Origin: Acidobacteriota bacterium
Lineage (GTDB): Bacteria; Acidobacteriota; UBA6911; RPQK01; JADFOI01
Reading direction: 5' to 3'
DNA length: 36,288 nt
Assembly (NCBI GenBank): GCA_036338555.1
Contig: JAYZBY010000136.1
Span: 1 to 36,288, forward strand
Shown here: one piece after another, positions 801 to 33,170 of the stretch
Layout of the letters: each line of letters begins with the position of its first letter
Numbering within the stretch: the stretch's first letter is position 1
Translations under genes and position numbers: made by a program
Notes under the pieces: generated by a model
The model's input: only the letters and a program-made list of their open reading frames with translations
Database searches by the model: none
What the model was told of the DNA's origin: nothing

Positions 801-858
801 GCGGGGAGTATTCCAGGGTGCCGCGATTCCGGAGGCCGCTCATAGAGCGGCCGCTACA
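801..858 (-). repeat. REP-like element, class B long form (GTAGCGGCCGCTC-loop-GAGCGGCC + CCGGAATCG tail)
   Basis: The minus strand reads tgtagcggccgctctatgagcggcctccggaatcgcggcaccctgg... It contains a NotI site (GCGGCCGC). The same element recurs at 14261, 21328, 28468 and 30411. Confidence 0.8.
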
Positions 859-1096
859 ATACCGTGCCGACTGATCGGGGGGCACGACGGTACGCCCTCT
901 TGATGGCCATGGCCGGGTAAACGTTTCCGGGGGTGTTGAGGGTGACCGTTCGGTCGTCCATGCTGACGACTTTTCCGTTTTTCAGAATCATGTCGGCATA
1001 GCTCTGCTGGGCCACCAGAACGGGCAGTTGCTGAGAAAGAACATAAATCTGGATCAAACCCACCACCAGCAAGGGCGTCACTAATCTTTTTCTCAT
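854..1096 (-). pseudogene. truncated N-terminal relic (about 66 homologous codons) of a group-I exported amidohydrolase
   Basis: ATG at 1096..1094 has GGGAGG upstream. MRKRLVTPLLVVGLIQIYVLSQQLPVLVAQQSYADMILKNGKVVSMDDRTVTLNTPGNVYPAMAIK aligns with the N-termini of 3855..5714, 9442..11316 and 18324..20180. Homology stops near nt 898 and the frame runs into the REP at 834..858 and terminates. The upstream extension to 1165 in the ORF track lacks support. Confidence 0.7.
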
Positions 1097-1182
1097 AAAT
1101 CCTCCCGCAAAGGGATTTTCAAATGATGTCACCTCGAAATCACTAAAATAAACACCTTCGGCCAAGCTAGAATGAATGTGAT

Positions 1183-1740
1183 GTGAGTAGAACGATTCGA
1201 GAATATGTGCTGCTGATCATCCTGGCAATGCAGGGCACCGGTGTTTTTGCCGCGCAGTTACCTGCATCGGAGGCTGTTCCAAACCAGGTCCTTTTGAATA
1301 ATCTGGTGGCTACGGCCGGCCAGGAGGTGACGCTCCATCTGCGCTTTGAAACCCAAACGGAGGTGAAAATCAACCGGCTCAAGCTGGAGATCGTTTTGCC
1401 GATGCCCCAGTTGAGTCTGGTCCGGGTTGAGCGTCCCTATCCGGTGGAAAAGGTGGAAGGGAAAATCTCGGTCCAGGAGATGGAATCAGGCCGGATTCAG
1501 CTGGAGATCGCGTTGCCCGAAAACAGCCTAGAAGCTCTTTCTGAAGAAGCGGTTGCCTTTCTGGTCATCCAGGTTGCCGGGAATGTCGAAGCTCTGCCGC
1601 TGACGATAGGAGTGGAGAACGTCGAGATGAGGGATCTCCAAGGTCGATTTTTGGAGGAAATTCAGGATTCCCAAGCACGAATCAACGTGGTCAGCGAGGC
1701 GCTGTATCCGTTGATCGCGTGCTTTTTTTACCTGCACTGA
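1183..1740 (+). CDS. hypothetical secreted protein, possibly a cohesin-like beta-sandwich (tentative)
   Basis: 185-aa ORF with a hydrophobic N-terminus (YVLLIILAMQGTGVFAAQ). The alternating beta-strand pattern (VTLHLRF, LKLEIVLP, IQLEIAL, FLVIQVAG) resembles cohesin-type domains. It has a GTG start without a clear SD, so the start is uncertain. Confidence 0.45.
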   Translation: MSRTIREYVLLIILAMQGTGVFAAQLPASEAVPNQVLLNNLVATAGQEVTLHLRFETQTEVKINRLKLEIVLPMPQLSLVRVERPYPVEKVEGKISVQEMESGRIQLEIALPENSLEALSEEAVAFLVIQVAGNVEALPLTIGVENVEMRDLQGRFLEEIQDSQARINVVSEALYPLIACFFYLH

Positions 1741-1793
1741 GTAGCGCGAGTCTTCGACCCGCGCGTTCCATGTAGGAATGTCTACGACCGCCT

Positions 1794-1809
1794 TGTAGCG
1801 GCCGCTACA
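1794..1809. repeat. REP-like element, class B short form (perfect 16-bp palindrome TGTAGCGGCCGCTACA)
   Basis: Self-complementary 16-mer containing a NotI site. An identical copy lies at 12088..12103. Confidence 0.85.
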
Positions 1810-1842
1810 CAATCTAGCCAGCGTGCCGAGGGGTTTCTTTTC

Positions 1843-1884
1843 GTGGAACGTGGAACCTGGAACGCGCAGACTAAAAGTCTGCGC
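1843..1884 (+). repeat. GTGGAAC heptamer triplet followed by an 8-bp-stem hairpin
   Basis: gtggaac gtggaac ctggaac occupies 1843..1863. It is followed by gcgcagac-taaaa-gtctgcgc (1864..1884), which overlaps the stop codon of 1871..3718. A near-identical inverted copy lies at 35802..35842. Confidence 0.8.
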
Positions 1885-3718
1885 TCCGGTAGATCACCTT
1901 GCCGCCGACCAGGGTCATTAAATTTTTGATCTTCTTGATGTCCATTTCGGGGATGGTGAAGTAGTCTCGATCCAGGACGATCAGGTCGGCCAGTTTTCCC
2001 TTCTCCAACGATCCCAGATCGTTTTCCCGGAGCACCGACTCGGCGGCCCAGGTGGTCCAGCCGCGTAGGGCACTGATCCGATCCAGTTTCTCCTCCGGCA
2101 CCCAGATTTCGCCGTCCCATTCTCGGGTGACATAAAAGGCGAACAGCGGCCAGAAGCCGTACCAGGGCCAGGCACCCAGTGCACTCTCCTTGGGCACCTC
2201 CGCCAGATGGGCATCGGTGGCTAGAGTGAATCTTGCGCCAGCCTCCAACATGCTTTTGGTGGGCGTGAACCACTTCATGTACTGGTCACCGTAAACATCG
2301 GTGAATTGAGCGATCCTGCGGGCCATGCCGGTGGCCTGCATGTTCATCCACAGTCCGTAGTGAGCCAGCTTGGGAATCTGATCGGGCCGGATCAGCAGGG
2401 GATGATCGAAGAAGTGCCGCTTCTCGCGGATCTGCTCGATCGTCCATCCGTCCTCGGCCATCAACTGGTCCATCATCTGAAACAGGATGTCGGTGGTGCC
2501 ATCCTGGGTGGCGTGAACATCGGCCAGTCTCAACCCCGCCTTTAGGGCAGCCAGGTGTCCGTCATAACGGAAGGTCCCGGGCTTGTGTCCCGGACACTGC
2601 TCCACCTGCTCCAGCTGGGCTCGCAGTGCCGGATCCTCCGGTACTGCCTGGCTGCAGGGGCTGGTGTCCCAGCCTTCTTCTCCCACCCCGCTGTTCCAGA
2701 AGTAATCGCTTCCCTGGCCGCCAAAATCACCCAGAAGGGTATAGAACTCGGCCGGATCGGCGGCCAGCGAGTAGGCGCTGCGATGGATCCAGGCCCAGCG
2801 GATGGGCATCTCGTCTCTTTTGTCCAGCAGGTTGAGGGCCTTGATCACCTCCAGCGGCTCGATGTGGGTCTGTACGGTGGTGAGGCCGAAGGAGGCATTC
2901 TCCTCCAGTTCCTTCTTGAGCATGGCCGCCACTTCTTCGGTTCGGTTGCGCAGGATGATGTCGTAGACCAGAAAGTACCAGACTCGAAGGCCCACCGGTT
3001 TCAAGGTGTCGATGTCGCGGCCGATGGCGTCGCTGATGATCTGCCGGGCCTGGCTGTTGTAGATGCCGGAGGCCAGACTGCCGCTGACCACCACCGGGTT
3101 CCGGGGTGCGATTCGGTCAAGATCGGCCGTGTTCACCATCCGTTTCCCGATCACTGGTGACTGGTCGCCCGCCGAGATGGCTCCATCCTGCATGGGAAGA
3201 TTGACGATGACCCAGTTGTCGGGCCCCAGCTCAGCTGCTCGTCTTCGGATGACCTCGCCAATTTTCTCGACTATGGCACTTCGGGGCAGGTCGTCCAGTT
3301 CGCTCTCGTGTAGCCCCAGAACCGGCGTCACCTTGAGCTGCATGTCGGGGGTGAAATCGGGATCGCTGCCGAAATGGTTGTACAGCCACAAATGAGGATG
3401 GGTGTGGCTGTCGATGATTCCTGGAAGGACCGTCCTTCCCTTCACATCGATGATCTCGGTTTGGGGTCCCGCCAGTTCCCGGATCTCCTGACTGCTTCCG
3501 AGCGCCAGGATCCTGCGGCCCCGAACGGCCAGCGCTTCAACCGTGGTCAACTGGTTGTCCATGACGGCGATCTTGCCGTTGATCACGATCACATCCGGAT
3601 AGGCCTCCAATCTAACCAACAGGTCGGAGACGTCCTGCCCGGAAGCTGTCCCCGGTGTCAGAAAATAAATAATTCCAAGAATCAGCCCGGCTTGGAAGAG
3701 CAACAGTCGTTTTAACAT
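1871..3718 (-). CDS. exported amidohydrolase family protein (Amidohydro_3/COG1574-like), group III
   Basis: 615 aa with an N-terminal signal peptide. It has the motif PDVIVINGKIAVMD...ALAVRGRRILALGS, the HxH metal motif PGIIDSHTHPH, and the C-terminal motif GSLEKGKLADLIVLDRDYFTIP...TLVGGKVIY typical of this family. Confidence 0.85.
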   Translation of the reverse strand: MLKRLLLFQAGLILGIIYFLTPGTASGQDVSDLLVRLEAYPDVIVINGKIAVMDNQLTTVEALAVRGRRILALGSSQEIRELAGPQTEIIDVKGRTVLPGIIDSHTHPHLWLYNHFGSDPDFTPDMQLKVTPVLGLHESELDDLPRSAIVEKIGEVIRRRAAELGPDNWVIVNLPMQDGAISAGDQSPVIGKRMVNTADLDRIAPRNPVVVSGSLASGIYNSQARQIISDAIGRDIDTLKPVGLRVWYFLVYDIILRNRTEEVAAMLKKELEENASFGLTTVQTHIEPLEVIKALNLLDKRDEMPIRWAWIHRSAYSLAADPAEFYTLLGDFGGQGSDYFWNSGVGEEGWDTSPCSQAVPEDPALRAQLEQVEQCPGHKPGTFRYDGHLAALKAGLRLADVHATQDGTTDILFQMMDQLMAEDGWTIEQIREKRHFFDHPLLIRPDQIPKLAHYGLWMNMQATGMARRIAQFTDVYGDQYMKWFTPTKSMLEAGARFTLATDAHLAEVPKESALGAWPWYGFWPLFAFYVTREWDGEIWVPEEKLDRISALRGWTTWAAESVLRENDLGSLEKGKLADLIVLDRDYFTIPEMDIKKIKNLMTLVGGKVIYRSADF

Positions 3719-3740
3719 GATTGAACCTTTCTGCTTGAGT

Positions 3741-3813
3741 TGTAGTGGCCGCTTCCATGGGCGGCTGTCTTGAGTCTATCGGTCGGGCCGCTCGATGAAG
3801 CGGCCGCTACACA
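3741..3813. repeat. inverted doublet of class B REP-like elements (REPIN-like)
   Basis: tgtagtggccgcttccatgggcggc (3741..) faces gggccgctcgatgaagcggccgctaca (..3811). The GTAG heads point outward, and the doublet sits between two tandem amidohydrolase genes. Confidence 0.75.
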
Positions 3814-3854
3814 ACCGAGCTAACGACCCGTTCAGTTGGAACCCTAACACCCAA

Positions 3855-5714
3855 CTAATTTGCCCCGGCGGCCAGGCCTGCCGAGTCGTGAACGATCTTG
3901 CCGCTGAGACCGGTCATGATGACTTTCATATCTGGAATTTCCTCCACCGGGACAGTGAAAAAATCCTTCTCCAAAACCGCGAAATCCGCGAACTTGCCCG
4001 GTTCCAGCGTGCCCACGGTTTTCTCGGCCAGCATATACTCAGAGGCCCAGGTGGTGGCCATCTTCAAGGCCGTGACCCGGTCAATGCCCTCTTCCGGGAG
4101 AAACTCATGCCACTGATCGGTCCCCTGCTTCTGAATGCGTCGCGTCATGAGGGTGTAAATGGGGGTCCAGAAGTCTGGACCGGTGGCTTCGAAGGTCACT
4201 CGGTGCCCATCGTTGATCCAGGTCTTGACCGGCATCGTGAACGATTCCACCTTTTCACCATAGGCTTCCAGAACATCGGGCACCCGGGCCAGATGACTGG
4301 GGGTGACGTTGATGATGATTCCATATTTTTTGATGCCGGCCATCACGTCGGGAACATTGCCCAGCAGGAAGGCGTGCTCCATGGTGGTGCGCAGACTTTT
4401 AATGTACTCGACCGAGAGGTTCCCCTCTGCCATCGCCTCTTCCAGCATCTCGATGTAAAGGCGGGCACCGTGACTGGAGGTACCGTGGGCCTGAACCGGG
4501 CGCCATCCGCTCAGGATGGCGGCCTTGTATGATTCCCACGGTTTGCTTCCCGGGGCGGGACACCGCTCACGTGACTTGATCTCGGCGGGGGCTAAGACGT
4601 CGTCACCCAGACACACCTCGTTGTAGATGGAATCCCAGATCTCGTTGCACATGCCGTTGAGCCAAAGCATCTCTCCGCCGTTGACGTGATCGGACCAGGG
4701 AGCGCCCGAGGCCTTGTAGAACTCGCGGGTGAAGCGAAGTCCGAAGTGGCGTCCCCGCTGCGATTCGATATAGTAAGCCAGCCGGTGAGGCATCTGGCTT
4801 TGGCGGTTCAGCTGGTTGTAGGCGGCCACGATCCGGGGGGCTACGATTCGGGTGGCCACGGTGGTGATGCCCAGTTTCTGCAGATCCATCCCAAACAAAC
4901 GCAGCGTCTCGGACAACTTCTCGAGCGGCTCGTCTTTCCACCAGAACTCCCAGCTGAGGGCATCCATGCCGGGGACGCCCACATAACCGTCCAGCGCCGA
5001 GTTGGGTCCGTTTTCCAGGTCGACGCTCTCGTTGAAATCAGGGAAGAGCTCGATGAAGGCATCCATGGCGGTTTCGTTAAAGAGCGGGTGAGTCCCTCCC
5101 GTTTTCACGGCCACCGGGTTGTCAGGCGTAGCGCTGTCCCATTGCCTGCGGTTGAGGTTGCCCTTGTAGACCCAGGTGAAGGTGGTGCCGACGGCATTGT
5201 TCTCATTCTCCAGCAGGCTGACCGTGATCCATTGTCCCTTGGGGATGTTCTGCACCCGTATGGCGTTGACCAGGGAATCCCGTACCTTCCCGGCCGTTGC
5301 TTCGGCGGTGGTCTCGGCCGTGACGGTCAACTTGATGCTGGGGTCGACCAGTCCCTGGCCCGGGCCGTACTGGCGGGCCGCGTTGCCGTAAAGGTGAAAG
5401 TGGGTGGCCACCAGTCCGGGAATCACGGTTTTGTTACCCAGGTCGACGAAGCGGGTCTCGGGTCCCGACAGTCTTCTCATCTGGGCATTGCTTCCCAGGG
5501 CCATGATTCGCTTTCCCTTGATGGCCATGGCTTCAACGATATTCCCAGGGGTGTTGGGAAGGCTGCTTCGATCGTCCAGGGTGGCAATCTTTCCGCTGGT
5601 TAAAACCAGGTCGGCATAGCCTTGCCGAGCCACCAGCAGGGGCAGTTCCTGAGCCCATGCCATCGCCGAGTTGTACAGGATGATAAGAGTAAAGGTCAAA
5701 ACGGTGCGCCTCAT
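3855..5714 (-). CDS. exported amidohydrolase family protein, group I
   Basis: The start is set at the ATG 5714..5712 (MRRTVLTF...), which has GGAGG 5 nt upstream; the ORF track begins 6 codons earlier. It has a signal peptide, QELPLLVARQGYADLVLTSGKIATLDD, HxH (ATHFH), and the C-terminal GTLEPGKFADFAVLEKDFFTVP. It is a close paralog of 9442..11316 and 18324..20180. Confidence 0.85.
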   Translation of the reverse strand: MRRTVLTFTLIILYNSAMAWAQELPLLVARQGYADLVLTSGKIATLDDRSSLPNTPGNIVEAMAIKGKRIMALGSNAQMRRLSGPETRFVDLGNKTVIPGLVATHFHLYGNAARQYGPGQGLVDPSIKLTVTAETTAEATAGKVRDSLVNAIRVQNIPKGQWITVSLLENENNAVGTTFTWVYKGNLNRRQWDSATPDNPVAVKTGGTHPLFNETAMDAFIELFPDFNESVDLENGPNSALDGYVGVPGMDALSWEFWWKDEPLEKLSETLRLFGMDLQKLGITTVATRIVAPRIVAAYNQLNRQSQMPHRLAYYIESQRGRHFGLRFTREFYKASGAPWSDHVNGGEMLWLNGMCNEIWDSIYNEVCLGDDVLAPAEIKSRERCPAPGSKPWESYKAAILSGWRPVQAHGTSSHGARLYIEMLEEAMAEGNLSVEYIKSLRTTMEHAFLLGNVPDVMAGIKKYGIIINVTPSHLARVPDVLEAYGEKVESFTMPVKTWINDGHRVTFEATGPDFWTPIYTLMTRRIQKQGTDQWHEFLPEEGIDRVTALKMATTWASEYMLAEKTVGTLEPGKFADFAVLEKDFFTVPVEEIPDMKVIMTGLSGKIVHDSAGLAAGAN

Positions 5715-5973
5715 AGTTTCCTCCAAGATCAAGCTTTAGGAGCTCCAGTAAACGTTCAGAGAAGTTTTTCGGAAATGGGGTATTGGCATTCCATCATCAG
5801 AAGAGCAGAAGACTGCCGTTTTGATCTCATTTTTAGGGTAGAAAGTCAAGTAGAAATGGCTTTTTCCGACCTTGGGCTTGTGCTATGATTCGCCCGCTGT
5901 CAGCCCTTTTAGGGTGGATGGACAATCAGCCTATACCTGCTAGGTAATCTTAACCTTACTGGGGGGATCAATC

Positions 5974-7743
5974 ATGAAAGTAACGAGAACGACGACGACC
6001 AGTATGACAGTCCTCCTATTTTTGTTGGGTCTGAGCGGTTGTGCCTCCAGTGTGCCCGAGGGACTGGCACCCGACATGGTCTTGCACAATGGCAAGATCG
6101 TCACCGTGGATGAGAGTTTTTCCATTGCTCAGGCCGTGGCCATTCAAGATGGGCGTCTGATTGCCGTCGGGTCCGACAGCGATGTCCTGGCCCTGGTCGG
6201 CGCAGGGACCGAGGTGATGGATCTGGAAGGGAAGACCGTTTTACCCGGCCTTCATGATTCCCATCTTCACCTGGCCTGGCCGGTGGGTGAGGCTCCCAAT
6301 CCGGCCATCCCCGAACTGGCGGCGGCTCGATCGATTGGAGAGATTGTCGAGATCGTGGGTCGCGAGGCGGAGGCCGCCGCGCCGGGCGAACTGGTGTGGA
6401 TTCCCTTCGGACCGGCCATCGTGGACATGATTGAAGAGAAACGCTGGCCCAACAAGTTCGATCTGGACCCGGTCTCCCCTGACAACCCGGTCGTGATCAC
6501 CTTTGCGGCGGACGGCGTGTATGTCGCCAACAGCATGGCCTTGGAGAAGGCCAACATCAACCGCCGGACTCCCCAGCCGCACCTCAGCGGCTTGATGGGA
6601 GAGTTTGAAATCGATGGCCGGACCGGCCAGTTGACCGGAGTCATGAAAGGACGTTCCGCGGCCCACCTGCTGCGGGAGCCGCTGGAAGTCTGGTCGACCG
6701 ACATCCTGGAGGAGAATATCGCCCGCGCCATTGAGGCTGACATCGTCCCCTACGGCATTACCAGCCTGGCCGACCCTGCCATGGCCAGCAACAATCAACC
6801 CATTCAACACGCCTTTCAGCGGGTGGCCCGGAGCAAGATCGGTGAGTGGGTTCGCCTTAATCTGATGATCCGGATTCCGGTGCGGGCCCTTTCGGCCGAG
6901 GAGTGCATTGACCTGATTCAAGGGCTTCTTTTTGAGCCGCCTCTCAAGAACGACTTCTTCCGGGTGGGAACTTTCAAGCTGAGTATGGATAAGGGATACC
7001 CCGGGGCCAAGCCCTATATCGTGCCCGAGGAGAAAGGGAAAAAGGTTCTCATCGAGGGACACAAGGCGGGATGGCAGCTCTACGTGCACATCACCACGCC
7101 GGAGACCTTTGACTATGTGAGTGAAGCTCTGGAGGAAGCCTACCGGCTCTACCCTCGAGAAGACGCCCGCCATATCTTCACCCATATCCACTACCCGACC
7201 CAGGCCAATGTCGACACCATGAAGCGGTTGGGGATCATTGCCGATTTACAGGTGACCCGCATCTACCATACGGCCGATGACGCCGAGGAGACGATCCATC
7301 AGGACCCCGATCGGCCTCACCTGGGCGACAAGCCCGTGGCTACCTACCGGGATGCCGGGATTTCGGTGATCCTGAGCAGCGACCAGGCGCCGGTGGGTCC
7401 CCTCTTCACCGTCTGGGAAGCGGTCAACCGGGTGCGCAAGTCCGGCAAGGTCTATCAGCCCGAAGAAAGCCTGACGCTGGAGCAGGCCATCCGGGCCATC
7501 ACCATCACTCCGGCCTGGGCTTTCTTTGAAGATGACATCAAGGGGTCTCTTGAGGTAGGGAAATGGGCTGATCTGGTAGTGCTGGGCCAGGATATTCTGA
7601 CGGTTGATCCGATGAAGATCAAAGACATTCCGGTACTCAGGACCATGACGGGTGGCAGGTTCGTCTATGTCAATCCCAACCAGGATCCCGATCAGGAGGT
7701 GAAGTACTATCGATATCCCCAGCGGACTTCTTACCTGGATTGA
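5974..7743 (+). CDS. amidohydrolase family lipoprotein, group II
   Basis: ATG has GGGGGGA 6 nt upstream. Lipobox is LLGLSGC. Other motifs are PDMVLHNGKIVTVDESFSIAQAVAIQDGRLIAVGS, HxH (DSHLH), and the C-terminal GSLEVGKWADLVVLGQDILTV. It ends in TGA (7741..7743). Confidence 0.85.
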   Translation: MKVTRTTTTSMTVLLFLLGLSGCASSVPEGLAPDMVLHNGKIVTVDESFSIAQAVAIQDGRLIAVGSDSDVLALVGAGTEVMDLEGKTVLPGLHDSHLHLAWPVGEAPNPAIPELAAARSIGEIVEIVGREAEAAAPGELVWIPFGPAIVDMIEEKRWPNKFDLDPVSPDNPVVITFAADGVYVANSMALEKANINRRTPQPHLSGLMGEFEIDGRTGQLTGVMKGRSAAHLLREPLEVWSTDILEENIARAIEADIVPYGITSLADPAMASNNQPIQHAFQRVARSKIGEWVRLNLMIRIPVRALSAEECIDLIQGLLFEPPLKNDFFRVGTFKLSMDKGYPGAKPYIVPEEKGKKVLIEGHKAGWQLYVHITTPETFDYVSEALEEAYRLYPREDARHIFTHIHYPTQANVDTMKRLGIIADLQVTRIYHTADDAEETIHQDPDRPHLGDKPVATYRDAGISVILSSDQAPVGPLFTVWEAVNRVRKSGKVYQPEESLTLEQAIRAITITPAWAFFEDDIKGSLEVGKWADLVVLGQDILTVDPMKIKDIPVLRTMTGGRFVYVNPNQDPDQEVKYYRYPQRTSYLD

Positions 7744-7793
7744 GATCGGATCAGGTTCGGAATTCATGAAGGATCGAAACGGAGGTACCGGCG

Positions 7794-9245: not shown

Positions 9246-9308
9246 ATCTCAACACAGAGCCTCCGAGAAGAGGTTTCACCCCAGAGACACAGAGAAGAAA
9301 AACAACTA

Positions 9309-9341
9309 AAAAGACGGCGGCACCAAGTGCCGCCGTCTTTT
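9309..9341. terminator. bidirectional rho-independent terminator between convergent genes
   Basis: aaaagacggcggcac-caa-gtgccgccgtctttt forms a 15-bp perfect stem. It has an A-tract on the left and a T-tract on the right, and lies between 7794..9245 (+) and 9442..11316 (-). Confidence 0.85.
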
Positions 9342-9441
9342 GAAGTTACCTGTGTCTGTCAAGCGAATCCGGAAACCGACCTTCACGCTCGGCTCGTCAC
9401 ACCAAGGTAAGAAAAAGAACTCTGTGTCTCTGTGGTCAGGG

Positions 9442-12024: not shown

Positions 12025-12042
12025 CCTTTAGGTGGGATAACT

Positions 12043-12066
12043 GTAGGGGCGCACGGCCGTGCGCCC
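12043..12066 (+). repeat. REP-like element, class A
   Basis: gtaggggcgcacggccgtgcgccc sits directly after the stop of 11551..12024. Confidence 0.85.
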
Positions 12067-12087
12067 TTTGTTCAGTTGGCGTGCCCT

Positions 12088-12103
12088 TGTAGCGGCCGCT
12101 ACA
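12088..12103. repeat. REP-like element, class B short palindrome
   Basis: tgtagcggccgctaca is identical to 1794..1809. Confidence 0.85.
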
Positions 12104-21327: not shown

Positions 21328-21371
21328 TGTAGCGGCCGCTCTAGGAGCGGCCCTCCGGAATGCGGTCGCAC
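21328..21371 (+). repeat. REP-like element, class B long form
   Basis: tgtagcggccgctctaggagcggccctccggaatgcggtcgcac lies just after the stop of 20247..21317. Confidence 0.8.
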
Positions 21372-24507: not shown

Positions 24508-24555
24508 TTCGGATCAAGCATTATTCGGACTGCGAAATTTCATCAAAAGGAGTGC

Positions 24556-25155: not shown

Positions 25156-25183
25156 AAGGAAAACCCAAAAAGGGGATAGATCA

Positions 25184-26983: not shown

Positions 26984-27006
26984 CTCAGTTAATCAAGGAG
27001 TTGTTG

Positions 27007-28434
27007 ATGAAAACTAAGGATGGACTGCCCTGGAATCGCAGAGAATTTATTCAAGGCGTGGGGGCGACCGTGGCCACGGCCTCCATGTTGCCCCAGGCCC
27101 AGGCCCAAGGGACACTCCCGGTGGCTGGTCGCTCCGACTGGACCCGGTTTGCCTATGATTTGCATAATACCCGTTTCAACTCGCGGGAAGCCACCCTCAA
27201 TGCGGGCAATGTGGGCCGCCTGAGGGCCAAATGGCGCCATCAGATCCCGGCTCCCATCCAGACCAGTCCCACCGTGGTGGGAGACACCCTGTTCATCGGA
27301 GCCTGGGACGGGCATTACCACGCCCTGGATTCGGAAACCGGTGAGCCCAAGTGGAAGTACGATGCCGAGGTTCGGCCGGAATCGCGCTGGGGGCTCCGGA
27401 CCCTGAAGTCGACCGCCGAATACGATCGGGGACGCATCTATTTCGGCACGGGAGGAGGCAATCTGAATTGTGTCGATGGGGCCACGGGAAAGCAGATCTG
27501 GAAGACCAACATGGGGCCCGGGTTGAACATTTCTTCCTCTCCCACCATTTACGGAGACCGAATTTTCATCGGTACCTCGGGAGGCAACGCCCAGGTCATT
27601 TGTGTGGATGCCGAGACGGGTGCCATCCGCTGGAGATTCAAGATTGTGCCGGATCGAGACGGCGGCGGCGGCTCTTCCTGGACCTCCACGGCCGTGGATG
27701 AAGAGCAGAAAATCGTCTACACCACGACCGGTAATCCCAGTTCCTACAATCCTCCCGGACCGCTGCTTTTTAGCGACAGCATTCTTGCCAACGACATGGA
27801 GACGGGTGAGCTGCTGTGGTACTACCAGGTCCGTGCCACCGATCCCTTTGACCTGGACTTCTCCTGTCATCCCATGCTCTTTGACGCCGTGAGCCCCGGC
27901 AAACGGGGTGCCACCCGGAAGTGTGTGGGGGCCGGCAACAAGACGGCTTTCTTTACCTGGGATCGCTATTCGGGTGAGCTGCTATGGAAAGTGATGTTGA
28001 CCAACTGGGCTACCCAGGGAGGTCCCTGGTGGAACAGCACAGCCACTGCCTACAATAAGGTTTATGTGGTTTCCAATGCCATTACCGACCGGGATCCCAT
28101 CACCAGCCGTTCGTTGGGACTCTCCGAATCGGTCACGGCCGCCCTTCAGGCCTACACCGGCGAGATTGTCTGGTGGCGCCACAATGACAGCATGAATCGG
28201 TCGCCCGTCTGTGTGGCCAACGGTGTCTTTTATCAGTCCCTGGGCAACGGAAGCCTTGAAGCCTTCGATGCGGAAACCGGAAAACATCTGTGGCAGTCCC
28301 AGATCGAGAGTACTTCGCGAGGCGGAATCGTCATTGCCAACGGGAATCTTTACACCAGCAACGGTGAAGGGGGTTTGCCCACCGAGCCAACACATGATTA
28401 TTATGTCTACGCCTACAGCATTGACGGGAGATAA
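27007..28434 (+). CDS. Tat-exported PQQ-like beta-propeller repeat protein
   Basis: The start is set at ATG 27007, with AAGGAG 6 nt upstream. It has the twin-arginine motif NRREFIQGVGATVATASMLPQAQA. It is a paralog of 7794..9245, sharing motifs such as DPFDLDFSCHPMLFDA and GAGNKTAFFTWDRYSGELLW. Confidence 0.75.
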   Translation: MKTKDGLPWNRREFIQGVGATVATASMLPQAQAQGTLPVAGRSDWTRFAYDLHNTRFNSREATLNAGNVGRLRAKWRHQIPAPIQTSPTVVGDTLFIGAWDGHYHALDSETGEPKWKYDAEVRPESRWGLRTLKSTAEYDRGRIYFGTGGGNLNCVDGATGKQIWKTNMGPGLNISSSPTIYGDRIFIGTSGGNAQVICVDAETGAIRWRFKIVPDRDGGGGSSWTSTAVDEEQKIVYTTTGNPSSYNPPGPLLFSDSILANDMETGELLWYYQVRATDPFDLDFSCHPMLFDAVSPGKRGATRKCVGAGNKTAFFTWDRYSGELLWKVMLTNWATQGGPWWNSTATAYNKVYVVSNAITDRDPITSRSLGLSESVTAALQAYTGEIVWWRHNDSMNRSPVCVANGVFYQSLGNGSLEAFDAETGKHLWQSQIESTSRGGIVIANGNLYTSNGEGGLPTEPTHDYYVYAYSIDGR

Positions 28435-28467
28435 GTGGTGCTGTAGTGCGGTGGTGTGAGGTCGGTT

Positions 28468-28522
28468 TGTAGCGGCCGCTCTGTGAGCGGCCTGATCGGC
28501 GCCTGAGGAACCTCCCACACTC
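28468..28522 (+). repeat. REP-like element, class B long form with CCTCCCACACTC tail
   Basis: tgtagcggccgctctgtgagcggcctgatcggcgcctgaggaacctcccacactc. Compare 30411..30472 and 36065..36108. Confidence 0.85.
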
Positions 28523-28530
28523 TATGCCGT

Positions 28531-28558
28531 TTCGGATTTGGGATTTCGAAATTCGGAT
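28531..28558 (+). repeat. four degenerate TTCGGAT heptamers
   Basis: ttcggat ttgggat ttcgaaa ttcggat lies just upstream of the SD of 28577..30217. A cleaner x3 copy is at 36021..36041. Confidence 0.7.
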
Positions 28559-28576
28559 TTTCCAAGGAGTCTAGAC

Positions 28577-30217
28577 ATGCATAAAAAACACCTTCACTTT
28601 CTGGTCATCGGCGCCGTCATCCTACTCTCGGCGAATCTTTTCTGGACGCAGGCCCAGCAGAATTCATCTCTGGTGGTGATCGAGGGAGCCACCCTGATCG
28701 ATGGAACCGGGGGAGCGCCCCTCGCCAACTCGGTGGTGGTGATCGAAGGGGACCGGATCCTACAGGTCTTTCGCCAGGGGGAGAGGGATTATCCTTCAGG
28801 GGCTCGGGTAATTCAAGCCGAAGGAAAGACCATCATTCCGGCTCTTTTTGATATCGATACCCACATCGCCCAGCAGGGACTGGAAGCCGCCGCCCAGGCG
28901 CTCACCAATTATCTCTACTACGGGGTTACCAATATCTCGGACACGGGCGTGAGCCTGATTCACGGGGAGGGGCTCCGTAGACTGGAGGAGGAAGGCAAGT
29001 TCATCTCGCCCCGCTTGTTTGAGGCCGGTCCCACCCTGACCGCCGTGGGAGGGCATCCCATTCCCGTCAATCGAGGTCTGGGTCGAACCATCGATACCCG
29101 CACCCTGACCCAGATCGAGGGACCGGAAGATGCCATTCGACAGGTGCGAAGATACGTCAACGAATTGGAGGTCGCCACCATCAAGGCCATTCTGGAGAGT
29201 GGAGGGGATCTGCATTATCCGCGGATGACGCTGGAGACCTACACCGCTCTGGTGGACGAAGCCCATCGCCTGGGAATGAAGGTGTACACCCATGCCAGTC
29301 AACTCTCGGATGCCAGGGATGCCCTGGAAGGAGGCGTCGATCTACTGGCCCACGGCTTTGCAGAAGAGCTCACTCGGGAGAGCGAACTGGCTCAGATGAT
29401 CGTCCAGAAGAAGGCGGCCTGGCTTCCGGATATCAATAACGTCGAATCCACTGCCAAGATGTTTGATAATCCGGAGATCTGGACGGATCCGGATGTTCTG
29501 AAAAGTGTTCCGGCGGTTTATCGAGACCTGATCAACGATCCCGCCGTTCGAACCCGGCTGATGTCTCGTCGGGAGCGTTCCCGCCAGAGCTACGAAAATA
29601 GATTACGCACGGTCAAGGTCCTTTACGACATGGGTGTGAACATCCTGGTCGGAACGGATTCAACCGGCGCCCCTCATCGCATGTTTTATGGATTCGATAT
29701 TCACCGTGAACTGGAGCACCTGGTTCGGGCCGGAATGAAGCCCATGGACGTCATCGTGGCGGCCTCTCGCAAGGCCGCTGAGTACCTGGGCCGGGAGAAG
29801 GACCTGGGAACGGTCGAGGCGGGAAAGATCGCCGATCTACTGATTCTGACGGGAAATCCCCTTGAAGATATCCGCGATTCCAGATCCATTGAGCAGGTGA
29901 TCTATGCCGGGAGGTTCATTGATCGGGATAATCTGCCCATGCTGGATCCCTTTAAAGAGGGCCTGGTGTCGACCGGGAAAAAAGAGCAGACCATTACCGA
30001 TCAGCAGGTGCAGGGAGAGGTAGCGGCTCGATTTCCCTCCGACCAGGGCAGGGAGTTGGTCCTGACCCAGTGCTCCGGTTGTCACAGCCTCCAGGTCATC
30101 TTAGAGCAGCGCAAGAGCAAATCGGAGTGGGAAACGACTGCTGCGAGCATGCTGGGAGAAGGCAATCAGGACATGGACGAGATGGTGGGGTATTTGAGCA
30201 GACACTTCGGACCTTAA
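28577..30217 (+). CDS. exported amidohydrolase (COG1228-like) fused to a C-terminal CxxCH haem-binding domain
   Basis: The start is set at ATG 28577 (MHKKHLHFLVIGAVILLSANLFWTQA), with AAGGAG upstream. The N-terminus VIEGATLIDGTGGAPLANSVVVIEGDRILQV...GKTIIPALFDIDTH is amidohydrolase-like, with D-x-H in place of H-x-H. The C-terminal ~60 aa LTQCSGCHSLQVILEQRKSKSEWETTAASMLG...YLSRHF carry CxxCH at 30071..30085. Confidence 0.75.
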   Translation: MHKKHLHFLVIGAVILLSANLFWTQAQQNSSLVVIEGATLIDGTGGAPLANSVVVIEGDRILQVFRQGERDYPSGARVIQAEGKTIIPALFDIDTHIAQQGLEAAAQALTNYLYYGVTNISDTGVSLIHGEGLRRLEEEGKFISPRLFEAGPTLTAVGGHPIPVNRGLGRTIDTRTLTQIEGPEDAIRQVRRYVNELEVATIKAILESGGDLHYPRMTLETYTALVDEAHRLGMKVYTHASQLSDARDALEGGVDLLAHGFAEELTRESELAQMIVQKKAAWLPDINNVESTAKMFDNPEIWTDPDVLKSVPAVYRDLINDPAVRTRLMSRRERSRQSYENRLRTVKVLYDMGVNILVGTDSTGAPHRMFYGFDIHRELEHLVRAGMKPMDVIVAASRKAAEYLGREKDLGTVEAGKIADLLILTGNPLEDIRDSRSIEQVIYAGRFIDRDNLPMLDPFKEGLVSTGKKEQTITDQQVQGEVAARFPSDQGRELVLTQCSGCHSLQVILEQRKSKSEWETTAASMLGEGNQDMDEMVGYLSRHFGP

Positions 30218-30320: not shown

Positions 30321-30394
30321 GTAGGGGGGCGCACGGCCTGCGCCCTTCTTAGCTTCACAGATCTACCTGTGGGCGCACATCTGTGCGCCCCTAC
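30321..30394. repeat. inverted doublet of class A REP-like elements (REPIN-like)
   Basis: gtaggggggcgcacggcctgcgccc (30321..30345) and gggcgcacatctgtgcgcccctac (30371..30394) have GTAG...CTAC heads facing outward. Confidence 0.8.
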
Positions 30395-30410
30395 ATCACC
30401 GGCACGATTG

Positions 30411-30472
30411 TGTAGCGGCCGCTCTGCGAGCGGCCCTTCGGAATCGGCGCACTGAGGTGCCTCCCATGCTAC
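30411..30472 (+). repeat. REP-like element, class B long form
   Basis: tgtagcggccgctctgcgagcggcccttcggaatcggcgcactgaggtgcctcccatgctac. Confidence 0.85.
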
Positions 30473-30534
30473 GAACTCTTCATTCTGGACTCTGGATTCT
30501 TCTTGCCGTGCGTTCGGTCACTTTCAATCCGGAG

Positions 30535-30563
30535 ATGACCCTCTCCCCTCTCTCTGGTAGAAT
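30535..30563 (+). promoter_or_regulatory. candidate extended -10 sigma-70-type promoter for 30609..31277
   Basis: ATGACC (30535..30540), a 17-nt spacer ending in TGG, then TAGAAT (30558..30563). It lies about 45 nt upstream of the ATG. Confidence 0.35.
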
Positions 30564-30608
30564 ACCTCGGCCCGAAGGAGGCATTAACCACATTCTAAAA
30601 GGACGATT

Positions 30609-31277
30609 ATGAAAGCAAAAACTCTTTTGACATCCTTGAGTCTCACCCTTGCACTTGTCATCGGTACATCGATCCCAGCCTTCTCCGGCCCTGCACCTCA
30701 GAGTGCCGCCGATCTGGCCTCCCAGCTGCCTCCAGGCGAGGGCAAGGGGTATGTTCAGACCATCTGCACCAGCTGCCATGGGCTGGGTCTGATCGTTGCC
30801 CAGCAAAAAACGAAGATTGGATGGGAAGCTACCGTCTACGATATGCTGGGAAGGATCTCAGCTGGAATGGACCGTGAGGCGGATATCATATCCAGCTATC
30901 TTTCCGCTCATTTTGGAGTGGAACCCGCCCCCTCAGTAGTGGACAATACGATGGATGAGTCGGCTTCAAGCGCTGTGGAGATCAAGATCTATCACCAGGT
31001 GGTCTTTCGCTTCAAGCCGGAGGTCAGCGTCGATCAGATCCAGCACGTTCTGGACACGGGCAGGGCAATGTTGGAGAGCATTCCCGAAGTGGCCACGGTG
31101 ATCGTGGGCACGGTGGCGCAGCAGGATTCAGACTATACCCACGGACTGGTGACCGGGTTCAAAAATAATGAGGACCTGCAAAGCTATCGTAGTCATCCCG
31201 ACCACCGAGACTGGCTCACCGACATCTACCGTCCCCTGGTTGAAGAGAGCCTGGTGACGGACATCGTCGCTCCTTAG
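30609..31277 (+). CDS. exported fusion of a CxxCH haem-binding domain and a Dabb (stress-responsive A/B barrel) domain
   Basis: It has a signal peptide (MKAKTLLTSLSLTLALVIGTSIPAFS). QTICTSCHGLGLIVAQQKTKIGWEATVYDMLG...YLSAHFG (CxxCH at 30765..30779) is paralogous to the C-terminus of 28577..30217. The C-terminal IYHQVVFRFKPEVSVDQIQHVLDTGRAMLESIPEV...FKNNEDLQSYRSHPDHRDW matches Dabb domains. Confidence 0.7.
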   Translation: MKAKTLLTSLSLTLALVIGTSIPAFSGPAPQSAADLASQLPPGEGKGYVQTICTSCHGLGLIVAQQKTKIGWEATVYDMLGRISAGMDREADIISSYLSAHFGVEPAPSVVDNTMDESASSAVEIKIYHQVVFRFKPEVSVDQIQHVLDTGRAMLESIPEVATVIVGTVAQQDSDYTHGLVTGFKNNEDLQSYRSHPDHRDWLTDIYRPLVEESLVTDIVAP

Positions 31278-31292
31278 TGGGCGCTACGTTAG

Positions 31293-33170
31293 TTAGTTGG
31301 AGCGATCCTTGAGGGCCTGATAGGTGGAGATCACCGCCTGATCGGGTCTCAGATCAGTCTCGGCGGCGAAATCGGGATGAAGGTACATCGGCCTTCCCCC
31401 CAGAATCGTCATGAGAGACTGGATCTCGGAGATATCTTCTTCCGGAATGCTCATATAGTCTTTGTCGAGGACCACCAGATCGGCCAATTTGCCCTCTTCG
31501 ATCGAACCCAGTTGGTCCTCTCGAAGAACGTATTCGGCGCCCCAGAGGGTGAGGGTCTTCAAGGCGGTAGTCCGATCGATCCGTTCGTGAGCTCCCCAAA
31601 CCTTTCCGTCCACTACGCGAGTGATCAGCATCTCCAGTTCACCCCATACATATTCGTCGCGGTCCATCTCAAAGGCCACGTGGATTCCGGCGTCGATCAT
31701 GCTTTTGACCGGGACCAGATACTGGTTGGCGATCTCCTCGCCATAAGATCGAGCGATACTCGGATAATTGGCGATGTACTTGGGGGCACAGCTCCACACC
31801 ACCCCCATGCGGGCGGCTCTCGCAATGTCCTCCGGATTGACCAGCGTGCAGTGATCCAGAGCCCAGTTCTGGACCGATGAGGGTCTTTCCCGGTTCACCT
31901 GCTCCAGCGCCGTTAAATAGAGCTCCTGTGCCCGATCCCCGGCCACATGCATGTTGGCCACTCGGTGGCCGTACCGGGCCACTTCAAAAAGCCACTCCCG
32001 GTAGTAGTTGCCGCTAATGGGTGCGCCTCGGCCCACGCTTCCTCGATACTCCAGATCCAGATGACACTGACCACTGGGATACCAGGCACCGATAAGGGAG
32101 AGTCCCATGGTGCCCTGATCGCCGGCGGCGTCGTTGTTTCTTTCCAGGGCAGTACATTGTCGAGCACCGCTTCCGTCCAGACCGACGGGGGTGACCGAGG
32201 CCATCCACACCATGGCGCTTCCCTCGCCTCTGGTGGTGTTCGCCAGACGCTCCCCCACGTCGGGGCGTCCGAACAGCCAATTGGCACCGTAGGCCATTCT
32301 GGTCTTCAGTTCTCCGTTGGATTCGAGCAGGCGATAGGCTTCGACGCTTTCCGGCTGCAGTTTGGTGGAAACGGTGGTGATCCCCATGGCACTCCACTCT
32401 TCCAGCTTCTTGTTATAGACCGGAGCCAGGACCTCAGGGGCCGGTTGGGGTCGAAATTCGGTCATCACCAGTCGGCTGGCGGGAGGCTCCAGATGCCCAT
32501 CGGGTCTGCCCTGGTCATCCACCCAGTAGCGACCGTACCTGGTGATGAAGTCGCCGTACTTATTCCACAAAATGTCGATCGCCTTGCTGTTGACGAAATA
32601 CCCGTTTTCGATGGGAATCCCCATGGAAAGAACGATGGGATTGTTGGGGCTGACCTTGTCCAGTTCCCAGCGATCCAGTTGATCGAACAGGATTTCGACG
32701 TGCTTCCGGTCACTGATGCCCCGGGAAGAGAAGTGAACCCATTCTCCGGGTTGGACGTCAATGGCATCCAGGGTTCGACGGATCTGGTTGAGCACATCGT
32801 CGGTCGATTGGACAACCCGAAAGTTGATGGGATAGTTGCGCATCTGATCGGAGCTCAGCTGTCCACCATAGGCTCGTTGTGCGTAGCTTTGCACGTGGGA
32901 GTGGGTGTCGATCAGACCTGGGACCACGGTTTTACCTTTCAGGTCAATCCTTACCGTGTTCGGACCCGCTTGTCTCAGGACTTCGGCGATGCTGCCCACC
33001 GACGCGATTTTGCCGTCGCGGATGGCCACGGCTTCGGCCACCGTGAAATCCTCATCGACTGTCAGGATCTCGCCGTTGTGCAAGATCATGTCGGCGCGCT
33101 CCTGGGCTAATCCTGAGGTCACGCCCAGCAACAAAACGATTCCCAAAAAAGTACCAACTCGCTTGAACAT
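31293..33170 (-). CDS. exported amidohydrolase family protein, group III
   Basis: The start is set at ATG 33170 (MFKRVGTFLGIVLLLGVTSGLAQE), with AAGGGGA upstream and only 10 nt after the stop of 33181..33810. Motifs are ADMILHNGEILTVDEDFTVAEAVAIRDGKIASVGS, HxH (DTHSH), and GSIEEGKLADLVVLDKDYMSIP. Confidence 0.85.
   Translation of the reverse strand: MFKRVGTFLGIVLLLGVTSGLAQERADMILHNGEILTVDEDFTVAEAVAIRDGKIASVGSIAEVLRQAGPNTVRIDLKGKTVVPGLIDTHSHVQSYAQRAYGGQLSSDQMRNYPINFRVVQSTDDVLNQIRRTLDAIDVQPGEWVHFSSRGISDRKHVEILFDQLDRWELDKVSPNNPIVLSMGIPIENGYFVNSKAIDILWNKYGDFITRYGRYWVDDQGRPDGHLEPPASRLVMTEFRPQPAPEVLAPVYNKKLEEWSAMGITTVSTKLQPESVEAYRLLESNGELKTRMAYGANWLFGRPDVGERLANTTRGEGSAMVWMASVTPVGLDGSGARQCTALERNNDAAGDQGTMGLSLIGAWYPSGQCHLDLEYRGSVGRGAPISGNYYREWLFEVARYGHRVANMHVAGDRAQELYLTALEQVNRERPSSVQNWALDHCTLVNPEDIARAARMGVVWSCAPKYIANYPSIARSYGEEIANQYLVPVKSMIDAGIHVAFEMDRDEYVWGELEMLITRVVDGKVWGAHERIDRTTALKTLTLWGAEYVLREDQLGSIEEGKLADLVVLDKDYMSIPEEDISEIQSLMTILGGRPMYLHPDFAAETDLRPDQAVISTYQALKDRSN

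Follow-up and report, generated by a model that had tools for sequence, protein, structure and literature searches.

Gene content of the window

We analysed a stretch of DNA of 36,288 nucleotides (the window) from an Acidobacteriota bacterium (assembly GCA_036338555.1, contig JAYZBY010000136.1, positions 1 to 36,288), which carries nine full-length genes of the amidohydrolase superfamily interleaved with TonB-dependent receptors, propeller proteins, a cupredoxin-like protein and haem c domains. The gene set comprises 23 genes, as defined by the listing of open reading frames (ORFs) and by Pfam and NCBIfam scans; Pfam membership was judged by the gathering score, and NCBIfam membership by the curated equivalog cut-off. 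The original prediction for this DNA, made from the letters alone, described nine exported amidohydrolases in four groups and a fragment of a further one. These were placed in a single locus of the polysaccharide-utilization locus (PUL) type, with uptake, hydrolysis and electron transfer all outside the cytoplasm. The nine full-length amidohydrolase genes were recovered as described, and each product exceeds the Pfam gathering score.

An exact look-up of a window protein returned no record, and the context was hence taken from homologues. Where annotated, the homologues belong to metagenome-assembled genomes (MAGs) of Acidobacteria or Acidobacteriota, and Candidatus Polarisedimenticolaceae is named by one source. 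The window itself comes from an uncultured lineage of Acidobacteriota that is marine or sediment-dwelling. A 98% identical orthologue lies on a contig of the MAG PW8.concoct.193_sub (locus L005). The synteny sample consisted of 76 genome loci around group I homologues, 8 loci around homologues of the group IV and propeller proteins, and 80 metagenome loci around the cupredoxin-like gene, and the ORFs of the fetched loci were labelled by phmmer with the window proteins as queries. A literature search, with subscription journals outside its coverage, found no account of such clusters, of the propeller/pseudo-cupredoxin pair described below or of a cytochrome-fused amidohydrolase.

Amidohydrolase groups and the relic

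Group I consists of the genes at 3855–5714 and 9442–11316 on the minus strand and at 18324–20180 on the plus strand. Group II consists of the genes at 5974–7743, 22735–24507 and 25184–26983, all on the plus strand. The genes at 1871–3718 and 31293–33170, both on the minus strand, had been placed together as group III, and the single group IV gene is located at 28577–30217 on the plus strand. The Amidohydro_3 (PF07969) scores are 94–248 bits against a cut-off of 29.7 bits (224, 213.6 and 247.9 bits for group II in the above order; 127.6 and 159.7 bits for the two group III proteins), and the group IV protein reaches 76 bits with PF01979. The latter is of the Amidohydro_1 type related to Cc2672 and Xaa-Pro dipeptidase. 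No hydrolase passes any NCBIfam equivalog (hutI, allantoinase, D-hydantoinase, Xaa-Pro dipeptidase and others), the best scores being 40–157 bits against cut-offs of 233–907 bits. Classification by hidden Markov models, which had been proposed as a check for housekeeping enzymes, thus identifies none of the nine as a characterised housekeeping enzyme. The window enzymes belong to the amidohydrolase superfamily, yet to no characterised family.

The paralogues were grouped by all-against-all BLASTP of the window amidohydrolases. The grouping stands for group I (61–64% identity) and group II (44–50%), but not for group III, whose members are only 28% identical and are no closer to each other than either is to group I (26–29%). 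The two proteins are best treated as separate lineages, IIIa (1871–3718) and IIIb (31293–33170). Orthologues of IIIa adjoin group I genes in L015, L022, L025 and L037.

The fragment at 854–1096 on the minus strand is indeed of group I origin, although it does not score with Pfam. It aligns to group I residues 1–66 with 45–56% identity (E 1e-18 to 4e-20), the homology extending over 899–1099, and it corresponds to the first ~67 codons of a group I gene. The full-length gene at the same syntenic position in L022 is 64% identical to it. A tblastn search for the remaining ~550 codons found no remnants, and therefore the relic is the 5' stump of a deleted gene.

Group I is greatly expanded. Among the genome representatives 371 relatives were found, and each related MAG holds at least about 8–13 loci, spread across contigs and mostly solitary. 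The window has three group I genes and the relic within 20 kb, whereas group I loci in related MAGs mostly stand alone; the clustering of the hydrolases is therefore not chance. Orthologues are 82–92% identical across MAGs (85–92% for 3855–5714), while the paralogues within the window share 61–64%; therefore the group I duplications are old and the copies have been maintained.

In L002–L004 (7086–15963), a 73% identical group I orthologue is located amid Amidohydro_1, Zn_peptidase_2, convergent UbiD and penicillin-amidase-family genes, which is another neighbourhood rich in amide hydrolases.

Active sites of groups I to III

The HxH motif at the end of strand beta-1 (H105 and H107) is invariant across the eight proteins of groups I, II and III, group IV being the exception. 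The His ligands of strands beta-5 and beta-6 are invariant in groups I–III (H410 and H447, in the numbering of the 3855–5714 protein), and group IV has them as H239 and H259. The beta-8 Asp is present in II, IIIa, IIIb and IV, while the aligned column in group I is Thr (MAFFT). The bridging Lys of beta-4 is found in group II (K343) and group IV (K203); the alignment of IIIa and IIIb is ambiguous at this site.

Group II has the canonical HxH/K/H/H/D ligand set, and the residues H103, H105, K343, H377, H405/H409 and D474 as well as the lipobox C29 are conserved in at least 95% of 20 sequences. In group I, the family-invariant residues are H104, H106, E359, D362, C369, C386, H411, H448 and E510 (18324–20180 protein). 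According to the AlphaFold model of this protein (pLDDT 71) and the alignment, the beta-4 strand is predicted at 357–362 and contains the invariant E359 and no Lys. With Thr in the canonical Asp column, the candidates for the beta-8 acid are E510, which is invariant, and D515, which is at least 90% conserved.

Against solved structures, the best sequence matches of group I reach only E ~1e-5. The closest folds to the model are the uncharacterised Pyrococcus YtcJ-like proteins 3ICJ and 3IGH (TMt 0.62–0.64, 15–16% identity; E 3.7e-16 for 3ICJ). Groups I, II, IIIa and IIIb all pass PF07969, like the YtcJ-like Amidohydro_3 proteins (cd01300); 3ICJ is also the best sequence match for group II (E 2.5e-15), and the HxH/K/H/H/D ligand set is common to both. 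The window proteins differ from the Pyrococcus proteins in that the identity is only 15–16% and in that they are exported or lipidated. Group I further differs in its Glu at the beta-4 Lys site, its invariant Cys pair and its uncertain beta-8 acid (E510 or D515).

A second comparison, which also offers a recent precedent, is given by Bilophila wadsworthia, where secreted metal-dependent bile salt hydrolases, encoded by co-localised Amidohydro_3 paralogues, hydrolyse N-acyl amino-acid conjugates (bioRxiv 2026, PMC13081902). By description, the likeness includes the Amidohydro_3 family, the Sec signal peptides, two or three co-localised paralogues and hydrolysis of amide conjugates outside the cytoplasm. 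Those enzymes, however, have 945 residues with extra C-terminal domains and are encoded beside a type II secretion system in gut Desulfovibrionaceae (PMC13081902), whereas the window has no secretion system.

Export and cellular location

Export was called by heuristics, that is, N-terminal hydrophobicity, lipobox and twin-arginine translocation (Tat) motif, with no trained predictor behind the calls. On this basis each of the nine hydrolases has an N-terminal hydrophobic segment and is predicted to be exported, as had been supposed. IIIa and IIIb have putative Sec signal peptides. The group II proteins are predicted lipoproteins, with the lipobox Cys at residues 23, 22 and 29 of the three proteins (LSGC in the 5974–7743 product). 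The invariant Cys pair of group I, C369/C386, would fit a periplasmic disulfide. Signal-peptide-like N-termini are also present in both receptors, in a 185-residue protein and in the cytochrome c/Dabb protein described below. In both propellers and in the cupredoxin-like protein a twin-arginine motif precedes a hydrophobic region, in accordance with the putative Tat export proposed for them; the RR does not vary among 19 propellers or among the 6 cupredoxin-like proteins aligned.

The same check found no signal peptide in the UbiD, SnoaL-like and CN-hydrolase proteins or in both CMD-like proteins. The statement that all of the chemistry lies outside the cytoplasm is thus wrong for about a quarter of the genes.

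Group IV amidohydrolase and the haem c domains

The two predicted CxxCH domains are present, at residue 499 of the group IV protein and at residue 53 of the 30609–31277 protein. In the former, a C-terminal mono-haem cytochrome c domain (~29960–30214, with CSGCH at 30071–30085) follows a Cc2672-like amidohydrolase domain, and the fusion is kept in 14 relatives. The latter is a predicted exported protein encoded on the plus strand, in which a cytochrome c domain (CTSCH at 30765–30779) is fused to a dimeric alpha/beta barrel (Dabb) domain (PF07876, 71 bits; SorB-like, 27 bits). The cytochrome c/Dabb gene follows the group IV gene in L081, L082 and L100.

The best solved relatives of the group IV protein are Cc2672, an L-Lys/L-Arg carboxypeptidase (3MTW, E 2.8e-28), and the Xaa-Pro dipeptidase 2QS8 (E 1.6e-25), and its best NCBIfam match is XaaProDiPepCaul. 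The score is, however, 156 bits against a 500-bit cut-off, and an appended cytochrome c domain of ~85 residues is absent from all solved relatives. The group IV protein also reads D95-T-H97 (FDIDTHI) at the HxH motif, and this replacement of the first His by Asp occurs in all 14 cytochrome-fused relatives, whereas the non-fused relatives retain HxH. K203, H239, H259 and D361 are conserved.

Both haem domains are below the cut-offs of the Pfam cytochrome c models. A profile of the domains matches the di-haem domain of 1JJU (quinohaemoprotein amine dehydrogenase, E 2.6e-8) and 1JMX (1.8e-7) as well as SorB (2BLF_B, E 1.1e-5), and C38, C41, H42 and the distal M64 do not vary among 10 domains. As judged from these residues, the cluster has no plausible redox centres other than the two mono-haem c domains.

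Propeller and pseudo-cupredoxin

The two propeller genes lie at 7794–9245 and 27007–28434, both on the plus strand. Paralogue 1 (PF01011, 147.9 bits; Tat motif RRRF) is 44–46% identical to paralogue 2, for which the model was made (pLDDT 80, pTM 0.83). The model has an eight-bladed fold, and Foldseek gave TMq 0.70–0.79 to 1KB0, 8GY2, 6DAM and 4MAE; the nearest folds are quinohaemoprotein alcohol dehydrogenases and XoxF (TMq 0.73–0.79), and BamB is less close (~0.6). The floor Trp, W225, is invariant. The D-x-D motif (WDYD/WDYA) is also retained, with D282 invariant and D284 at least 90% conserved, and the invariant K312 aligns at the Arg331 position. We take the D-x-D motif to correspond to the catalytic and lanthanide-binding Asp of XoxF, with the residue roles assumed from MxaF and XoxF. 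The vicinal Cys-Cys is absent (GCC aligns to GLR), as is the Glu ligand of GGE(F/Y)GVRG (GGE aligns to GGN, with a 4-residue deletion at a variable column) and the Asn ligand (GDNKW aligns to GPLLF). The propellers score 146–169 bits with TIGR03075 against a 480-bit cut-off, and they weakly resemble the "acido-empty-quinoprotein" model TIGR04528 (136–140 bits against 650 bits). With the TIGR03075 cut-off so far away and three hallmarks lost, an assignment as dehydrogenases dependent on pyrroloquinoline quinone (PQQ) was not accepted.

The cupredoxin-like protein (24556–25155, plus strand, 199 residues; Tat motif RRKF) passes PF00127 with 30.2 bits against a cut-off of 21.2 bits, but contains no Cys at all. 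The type-1 copper loop YYCxPHxxxGM reads YYSPSHEYLGM in this protein. Relatives have YDYYC(I/V)PHExxGM, whereas the window protein and six orthologues have YDY(Y/F)S-x-x-(H/Y/Q)-E-x-x-GM; the Ser of this motif never varies, while H, Y or Q may stand at the position of the His. An exhaustive search found 1,551 relatives, and 109 of the best 150 keep the C..H..M motif. The protein belongs to a derived branch of a Tat-exported blue-copper family, which has lost the copper site, and with no Cys present a role as a blue copper electron carrier was rejected. The idea that the cluster has several electron-transfer proteins therefore holds for the two haem c domains, which look redox-competent, but not for the cupredoxin without Cys or the propellers without the three PQQ hallmarks. 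Some relatives (P0361, P0363 and P0364) are 1,070–1,452 residues long with 5–9 tandem cupredoxin domains; they have a Tat-like N-terminus, and C..H..M is kept in each of 4–9 repeats.

In 48 of 64 testable loci the gene immediately upstream of the cupredoxin-like one encodes a propeller, and in 8 it encodes an amidohydrolase. When only the 27 loci testable on both sides are considered, the propeller gene is adjacent or one amidohydrolase gene away in 25. The propeller and the pseudo-cupredoxin are thus a near-obligate gene pair. Among the 80 loci, 17 have an amidohydrolase gene directly beside the cupredoxin-like gene, and three gene orders occur among them. In the window lineage the pair has taken in group II hydrolases, and the 25184–26983 gene is inserted between the cupredoxin-like and propeller genes. 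The pair has no characteristic third partner in these loci; the neighbours are diverse (beta-lactamase-like, flavin-dependent (FAD) oxidoreductase, DUF5916, permeases, amidohydrolase). In more distant genomes (L084/L085, 4657–13996) the pair is located beside an acidobacterial TonB receptor, and L084 adds a cytochrome c/Dabb gene and a GMC oxidoreductase. In L086 (4582–12273) it is beside such a receptor and a 562-residue Amidohydro_1 protein, with SCO1/SenC and a multicopper oxidase further downstream.

The arrangement invites comparison with quinoprotein dehydrogenase systems (PQQ-dependent alcohol dehydrogenase or XoxF with cytochrome c, quinohaemoprotein amine dehydrogenase, and methylamine dehydrogenase with amicyanin). 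An eight-bladed propeller is paired with a cupredoxin-family protein, and the haem c domains resemble the haem domains of quinohaemoprotein amine dehydrogenase. The window propeller, however, is ~100 residues shorter, Tat-exported and without the Cys-Cys, Glu and Asn ligands, and the cupredoxin has no copper-binding Cys.

One explanation of the genes around the pair is a periplasmic oxidative system. The amidohydrolases would free an amine or alcohol, the propeller would oxidise it with PQQ or another organic cofactor in a modified pocket, and the electrons would leave through the two haem c domains. Such a system would resemble quinohaemoprotein amine or alcohol dehydrogenases with cytochrome or cupredoxin partners. 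The nearest folds of the propeller, its floor Trp, D-x-D motif and invariant Lys, and the resemblance of the haem domains to the di-haem domain of 1JJU and to SorB are in agreement with it. The genes from 22735 to 30217 also lie on one strand with gaps of 23–142 nt, and their order is kept in L081 and L082. Nevertheless, the propeller lacks the three hallmarks, is far below TIGR03075 and also resembles the empty-quinoprotein model, though well below its cut-off; the cupredoxin is devoid of Cys and varies at its loop His; and the pair is mostly found without any cytochrome (3 of 22 loci). A Tat signal is, moreover, atypical for PQQ enzymes. We regard this oxidative system as unlikely.

UbiD decarboxylase and CN-hydrolase homologue

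The UbiD-family gene is located at 12111–13538 on the minus strand. PF20695, PF01977 and PF20696 all pass, and TIGR00148 gives 269 bits against a cut-off of 244.85 bits. The best structure match is 7PDA over the full length (E 3.6e-113, 382 bits), and the next solved UbiD scores 184 bits. 7PDA is PhdA, the phenazine-1-carboxylic acid decarboxylase of Mycobacterium fortuitum (PMC10850782). The window protein thus aligns to PhdA over its full length with a score twice that of any other solved UbiD, but the identity is roughly half, and no UbiX gene is present in the window.

The association with group I was examined in 39 non-redundant group I loci of at least 9 kb and in 22 control loci centred on the propeller/cupredoxin pair. 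A UbiD-family gene lies within 10 kb of the group I gene in 12 of the 39 loci and in 0 of the 22 control loci (Fisher p = 0.0025). It often directly adjoins the group I gene, and several UbiD subfamilies are involved, which differ from that of the window.

The CN-hydrolase homologue (20247–21317, plus strand; PF00795, 115.5 bits) is the partner of the 18324-type hydrolase, and the pair is found in L001, L005, L007, L017, L090 and L092. According to the alignment with Nit2, the Glu (PEG) and Lys (YRKHR) of the triad are present, and Ala occupies the position of the catalytic Cys. The Ala occurs in all 6 of 6 orthologues, which likewise adjoin group I hydrolase genes, and a more distant paralogue retains Cys. 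With this replacement, an active nitrilase or amidase was not accepted. The protein looks like a conserved pseudo-enzyme, or one with a changed mechanism.

Conserved site replacements accordingly occur in four families: Cys to Ser in the cupredoxin, Cys to Ala in the CN hydrolase, the lost ligands of the propeller, and HxH to DxH in group IV. This raises the question whether the cluster contains several pseudo-enzymes and has a role in binding, sensing or detoxification instead of catabolism; toxins or antibiotics with amide groups might, for example, be sequestered or inactivated in the envelope. The relatives of the amidohydrolases include ochratoxinase, molinate hydrolase and phenylurea hydrolase. 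Group II, however, retains every canonical ligand, and in groups I and III the HxH motif and the two His ligands are intact. Nutrient use is also a better match for the presence of nine paralogues and for their link to a cytoplasmic decarboxylase, and we consider the binding or detoxification function quite improbable.

Three conserved modules

The gene order was compared with that of related loci, as had been suggested. Co-localisation is kept in blocks across species (L022, L017, L025, L081, L082, L090 and L092), but the window is not one unit. It consists of three separately conserved modules, which are juxtaposed here.

Module A runs in the order receptor, relic or full-length group I gene, 185-residue protein, IIIa, group I, group I, SnoaL, UbiD, CMD in some cases, and receptor. 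The left receptor gene starts at 392 on the minus strand and runs past the left end of the window, so that 1–392 encodes only the N-terminal 130 residues. It was identified as a CarboxypepD_reg-type TonB-dependent receptor by six-frame translation and start mapping, and is homologous to the receptor flanking the syntenic cluster of L022. The 185-residue protein (1183–1740, plus strand) belongs to no Pfam or NCBIfam family; its gene adjoins IIIa, and its position is kept in L022, L024 and L025. The SnoaL-like gene (11551–12024, plus strand; PF07366, 63 bits) is syntenic in L022, L024 and L025. The small CMD/AhpD-like protein (13576–13854, minus strand) has no Cys and matches PF02627 weakly (E 0.007); its gene is syntenic in L017 and L025. 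The complete receptor gene at 14693–18151 on the plus strand (CarboxypepD_reg, Plug and OMP_b-brl_4; PF25183, 592 bits) has orthologues at the same position in L017 and L022. Module A is also present in XB_MAG1224 (L022), where an intact gene stands at the position of the relic and the group II and propeller genes inserted in the window are absent.

Module B has the order receptor, group I, CN hydrolase, and continues from module A in L017. Module C comprises the genes for a 367-residue protein, group II, the cupredoxin-like protein, group II, the propeller, the group IV–cytochrome c fusion, the cytochrome c–Dabb fusion, IIIb and a CMD-like protein, with further genes up to a tetratricopeptide repeat (TPR) protein. 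The 367-residue protein (21386–22489, plus strand) has orthologues in L081, L090 and L092. Its N-terminus is weakly J-domain-like, and the protein further contains a single, very hydrophobic internal transmembrane helix, a long linker that is acidic and rich in Pro, and a small domain at the C-terminus. A function as a membrane-spanning regulator or chaperone-like factor is conceivable. The second CMD-like gene (33517–33810, minus strand; PF02627, 27.5 bits against a 23-bit cut-off) is at the same position in L081. On the 1.6-Mb contig of L081 module C is intact, with a group IV protein 87% identical to that of the window and an IIIb orthologue, but it does not adjoin module B. On the 3.9-Mb contig of L082 (77% identity), module C has an extra unit of cupredoxin-like, group II and propeller genes and is without IIIb. 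Modules B and C are joined in L090 and L092 as in the window.

The absence of any functional unit must also be weighed. The window would then be a hot-spot of recombination and duplication that gathers large paralogous families (amidohydrolases, receptors and propellers), with each gene or pair independent and acting on a different substrate. The massive expansion of group I, mostly as solitary loci, is as expected from such a history, and so are the gene decay seen in the relic, the transposase-mediated break-up of L001, the dispersed palindromes between nearly all genes, the use of both strands with strong terminators between some genes, and the lack of enrichment of receptors. On the other hand, blocks of up to 9–10 genes keep their order across species at 77–90% protein identity (L022, L081, L082, L090 and L092). 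There is strong statistical support for the association of group I with UbiD and for the propeller/cupredoxin pairing, and group II genes adjoin the pair in three different gene orders. We hold a mere hot-spot to be rather doubtful.

TonB-dependent receptors and comparison with PULs

Both predicted TonB-dependent receptors are present. The SusC model TIGR04056, however, gives 17.6 bits on the receptors against a 368-bit cut-off, and no SusD family was found in any scanned ORF. Neither carbohydrate-active enzymes nor a dedicated regulator were found among the 24 ORFs scanned. With no SusC/SusD pair, glycoside hydrolase or regulator in the window, the designation as a PUL-type locus is not upheld.

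The window is like the PULs of Bacteroidota and other loci centred on TonB receptors in having outer-membrane receptors beside exported and lipoprotein hydrolases, and in having clustered paralogous hydrolases. It is unlike the Bacteroidota PULs in that its receptors are of the acidobacterial CarboxypepD_reg/OMP_b-brl_4 type and not SusC, in that SusD, glycoside hydrolases and hybrid two-component or extracytoplasmic function (ECF) regulators are absent, and in that its hydrolases are amidohydrolases. To judge from the genes present, the region would work like a hydrolase locus linked to TonB receptors, and not like a PUL in the SusC/SusD sense. Nor do RNA elements suggest a ligand: in an Rfam scan (E up to 0.1), neither a riboswitch nor any other RNA was found in front of the receptor genes or operons.

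Intergenic repeats and hairpins

GC-rich palindromes resembling repetitive extragenic palindromic (REP) elements occur in almost every intergenic gap of the cluster. They form two families, with the cores TGTAGCGGCCGCTCTnnGAGCGGCC and TGTAGGGGCGCACGGCCGTGCGCCC. The first type is located at 821–869, 1794–1828, 3796–3830, 12063–12100, 14150–14183, 14260–14293, 21328–21361, 28468–28501 and 30411–30444, and the second at 12040–12068, 20179–20207 and 30371–30395. A 49-nt repeat is common to 30428–30476 and 36065–36113 (84% identity), and the right end of the window (36148–36217) has a tandem array in which the 7-nt unit CTGTGGT is repeated ~nine times.

An inverted repeat of 28 nt with GTGGAAC heptamers (1838–1865 and 35820–35847, 96% complementary) brackets nearly the whole cluster. 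It was considered as the ends of a mobile element and rejected, since the same heptamer repeat is intergenic in five unrelated loci (L001, L026, L061, L092 and L162), i.e. it is dispersed.

The totals of the promoter and terminator scans were not above those of shuffled sequences, but two strong terminator-like hairpins, each with a 15-bp stem, stand out. The hairpin at 9309–9341 is bidirectional and lies between the convergent propeller (7794–9245) and group I (9442–11316) genes; the hairpin at 18179–18211 lies 3' of the complete TonB receptor gene.

Proposed function of the region

Our preferred reading, for which we would put the chance a little short of even, is that the window is a composite nutrient-scavenging region of a marine or sediment acidobacterium, in which the three modules share expanded families of exported YtcJ-type and Cc2672-type metallo-amidohydrolases. 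From the gene content, the heuristic export signals, the ligand patterns, the synteny and the gene-pair statistics, we infer the chemistry, the direction of flow, any role of the receptors, any physical complex and the substrate as follows.

Small amide-linked compounds would cross the outer membrane, possibly via the adjacent TonB-dependent receptors. Supply by the receptors is proposed because of their conserved position in two other species, and not because of enrichment. Candidate substrates are N-acyl or aroyl conjugates, carboxamides, and short or modified peptides. These would be hydrolysed in the periplasm or at the membrane face by soluble (I, IIIa, IIIb and IV) and lipid-anchored (II) amidohydrolases, and the released acids and amines would enter the cytoplasm. 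For modules A and B, a PhdA-like UbiD dependent on prenylated flavin mononucleotide (prFMN), with SnoaL-like and CMD-like helpers, may process an aromatic or heteroaromatic carboxylate.

In module C, the group II lipoproteins would work with the Tat-exported propeller and the pseudo-cupredoxin, which are presumably derived from a quinoprotein and a blue-copper protein with loss of the classical cofactor ligands. The two would most likely be a binding or scaffolding pair, or a carrier of a non-classical activity. The two mono-haem c domains, one fused to the DxH amidohydrolase and the other to Dabb, would provide the only likely electron-transfer step.

Several points weigh against the scavenging region. 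Adjacency to a TonB receptor is not enriched (8 of 39 group I loci and 5 of 22 control loci). The strong hairpin at 18179–18211 directly follows the complete receptor gene, implying separate transcription of the receptor and of the hydrolase downstream of it, and the window contains no regulator. Most group I paralogues in related MAGs are solitary, and L001, which has a 92% identical orthologue, keeps only the pair of hydrolase and CN hydrolase, between transposases. Export was judged by simple heuristics. Classical hydrolysis is not assured at the non-canonical sites (the beta-4 Glu and uncertain beta-8 acid of group I, the DxH of group IV and the Cys-to-Ala replacement of the CN hydrolase). 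Finally, no hydrolase is close to any characterised enzyme, and the best solved relative, 3ICJ (15–16% identity), is itself uncharacterised.

The transposase genes of L001 (DUF772, Transposase_mut and IS240-type) lie on either side of the hydrolase and CN-hydrolase genes, at 1–9500 and 13777–14499, so that the L001 cluster seems to have been broken up by insertion sequences.

Implications

New here are the propeller/pseudo-cupredoxin pairing, the association of group I with UbiD, and the DxH motif in the cytochrome-fused hydrolase clade. A bolder proposal, to which we give a low probability, is that module C is an undescribed periplasmic enzyme system. It would be formed by the Tat-exported pair under selection, the group II lipoproteins and a haem-wired DxH amidohydrolase, while group I would feed N-heteroaromatic acids to the PhdA-like UbiD. 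If true, this would be redox-coupled chemistry on an amidohydrolase scaffold, for which we know of no characterised precedent. The propeller/pseudo-cupredoxin pair and the haem-fused DxH amidohydrolase could reveal a function for the "empty" quinoproteins or new chemistry in a well-studied superfamily.

Little is known of the substrates used by Acidobacteriota, although the phylum is abundant in soils and sediments and in the deep sea. The conserved exported amidohydrolases, with about ten or more copies per genome and a link to UbiD, suggest that amide-bound carbon and nitrogen are scavenged by a route so far unrecognised. It could draw on N-acyl or aroyl conjugates, on heteroaromatic carboxamides and on modified peptides from recalcitrant organic matter.

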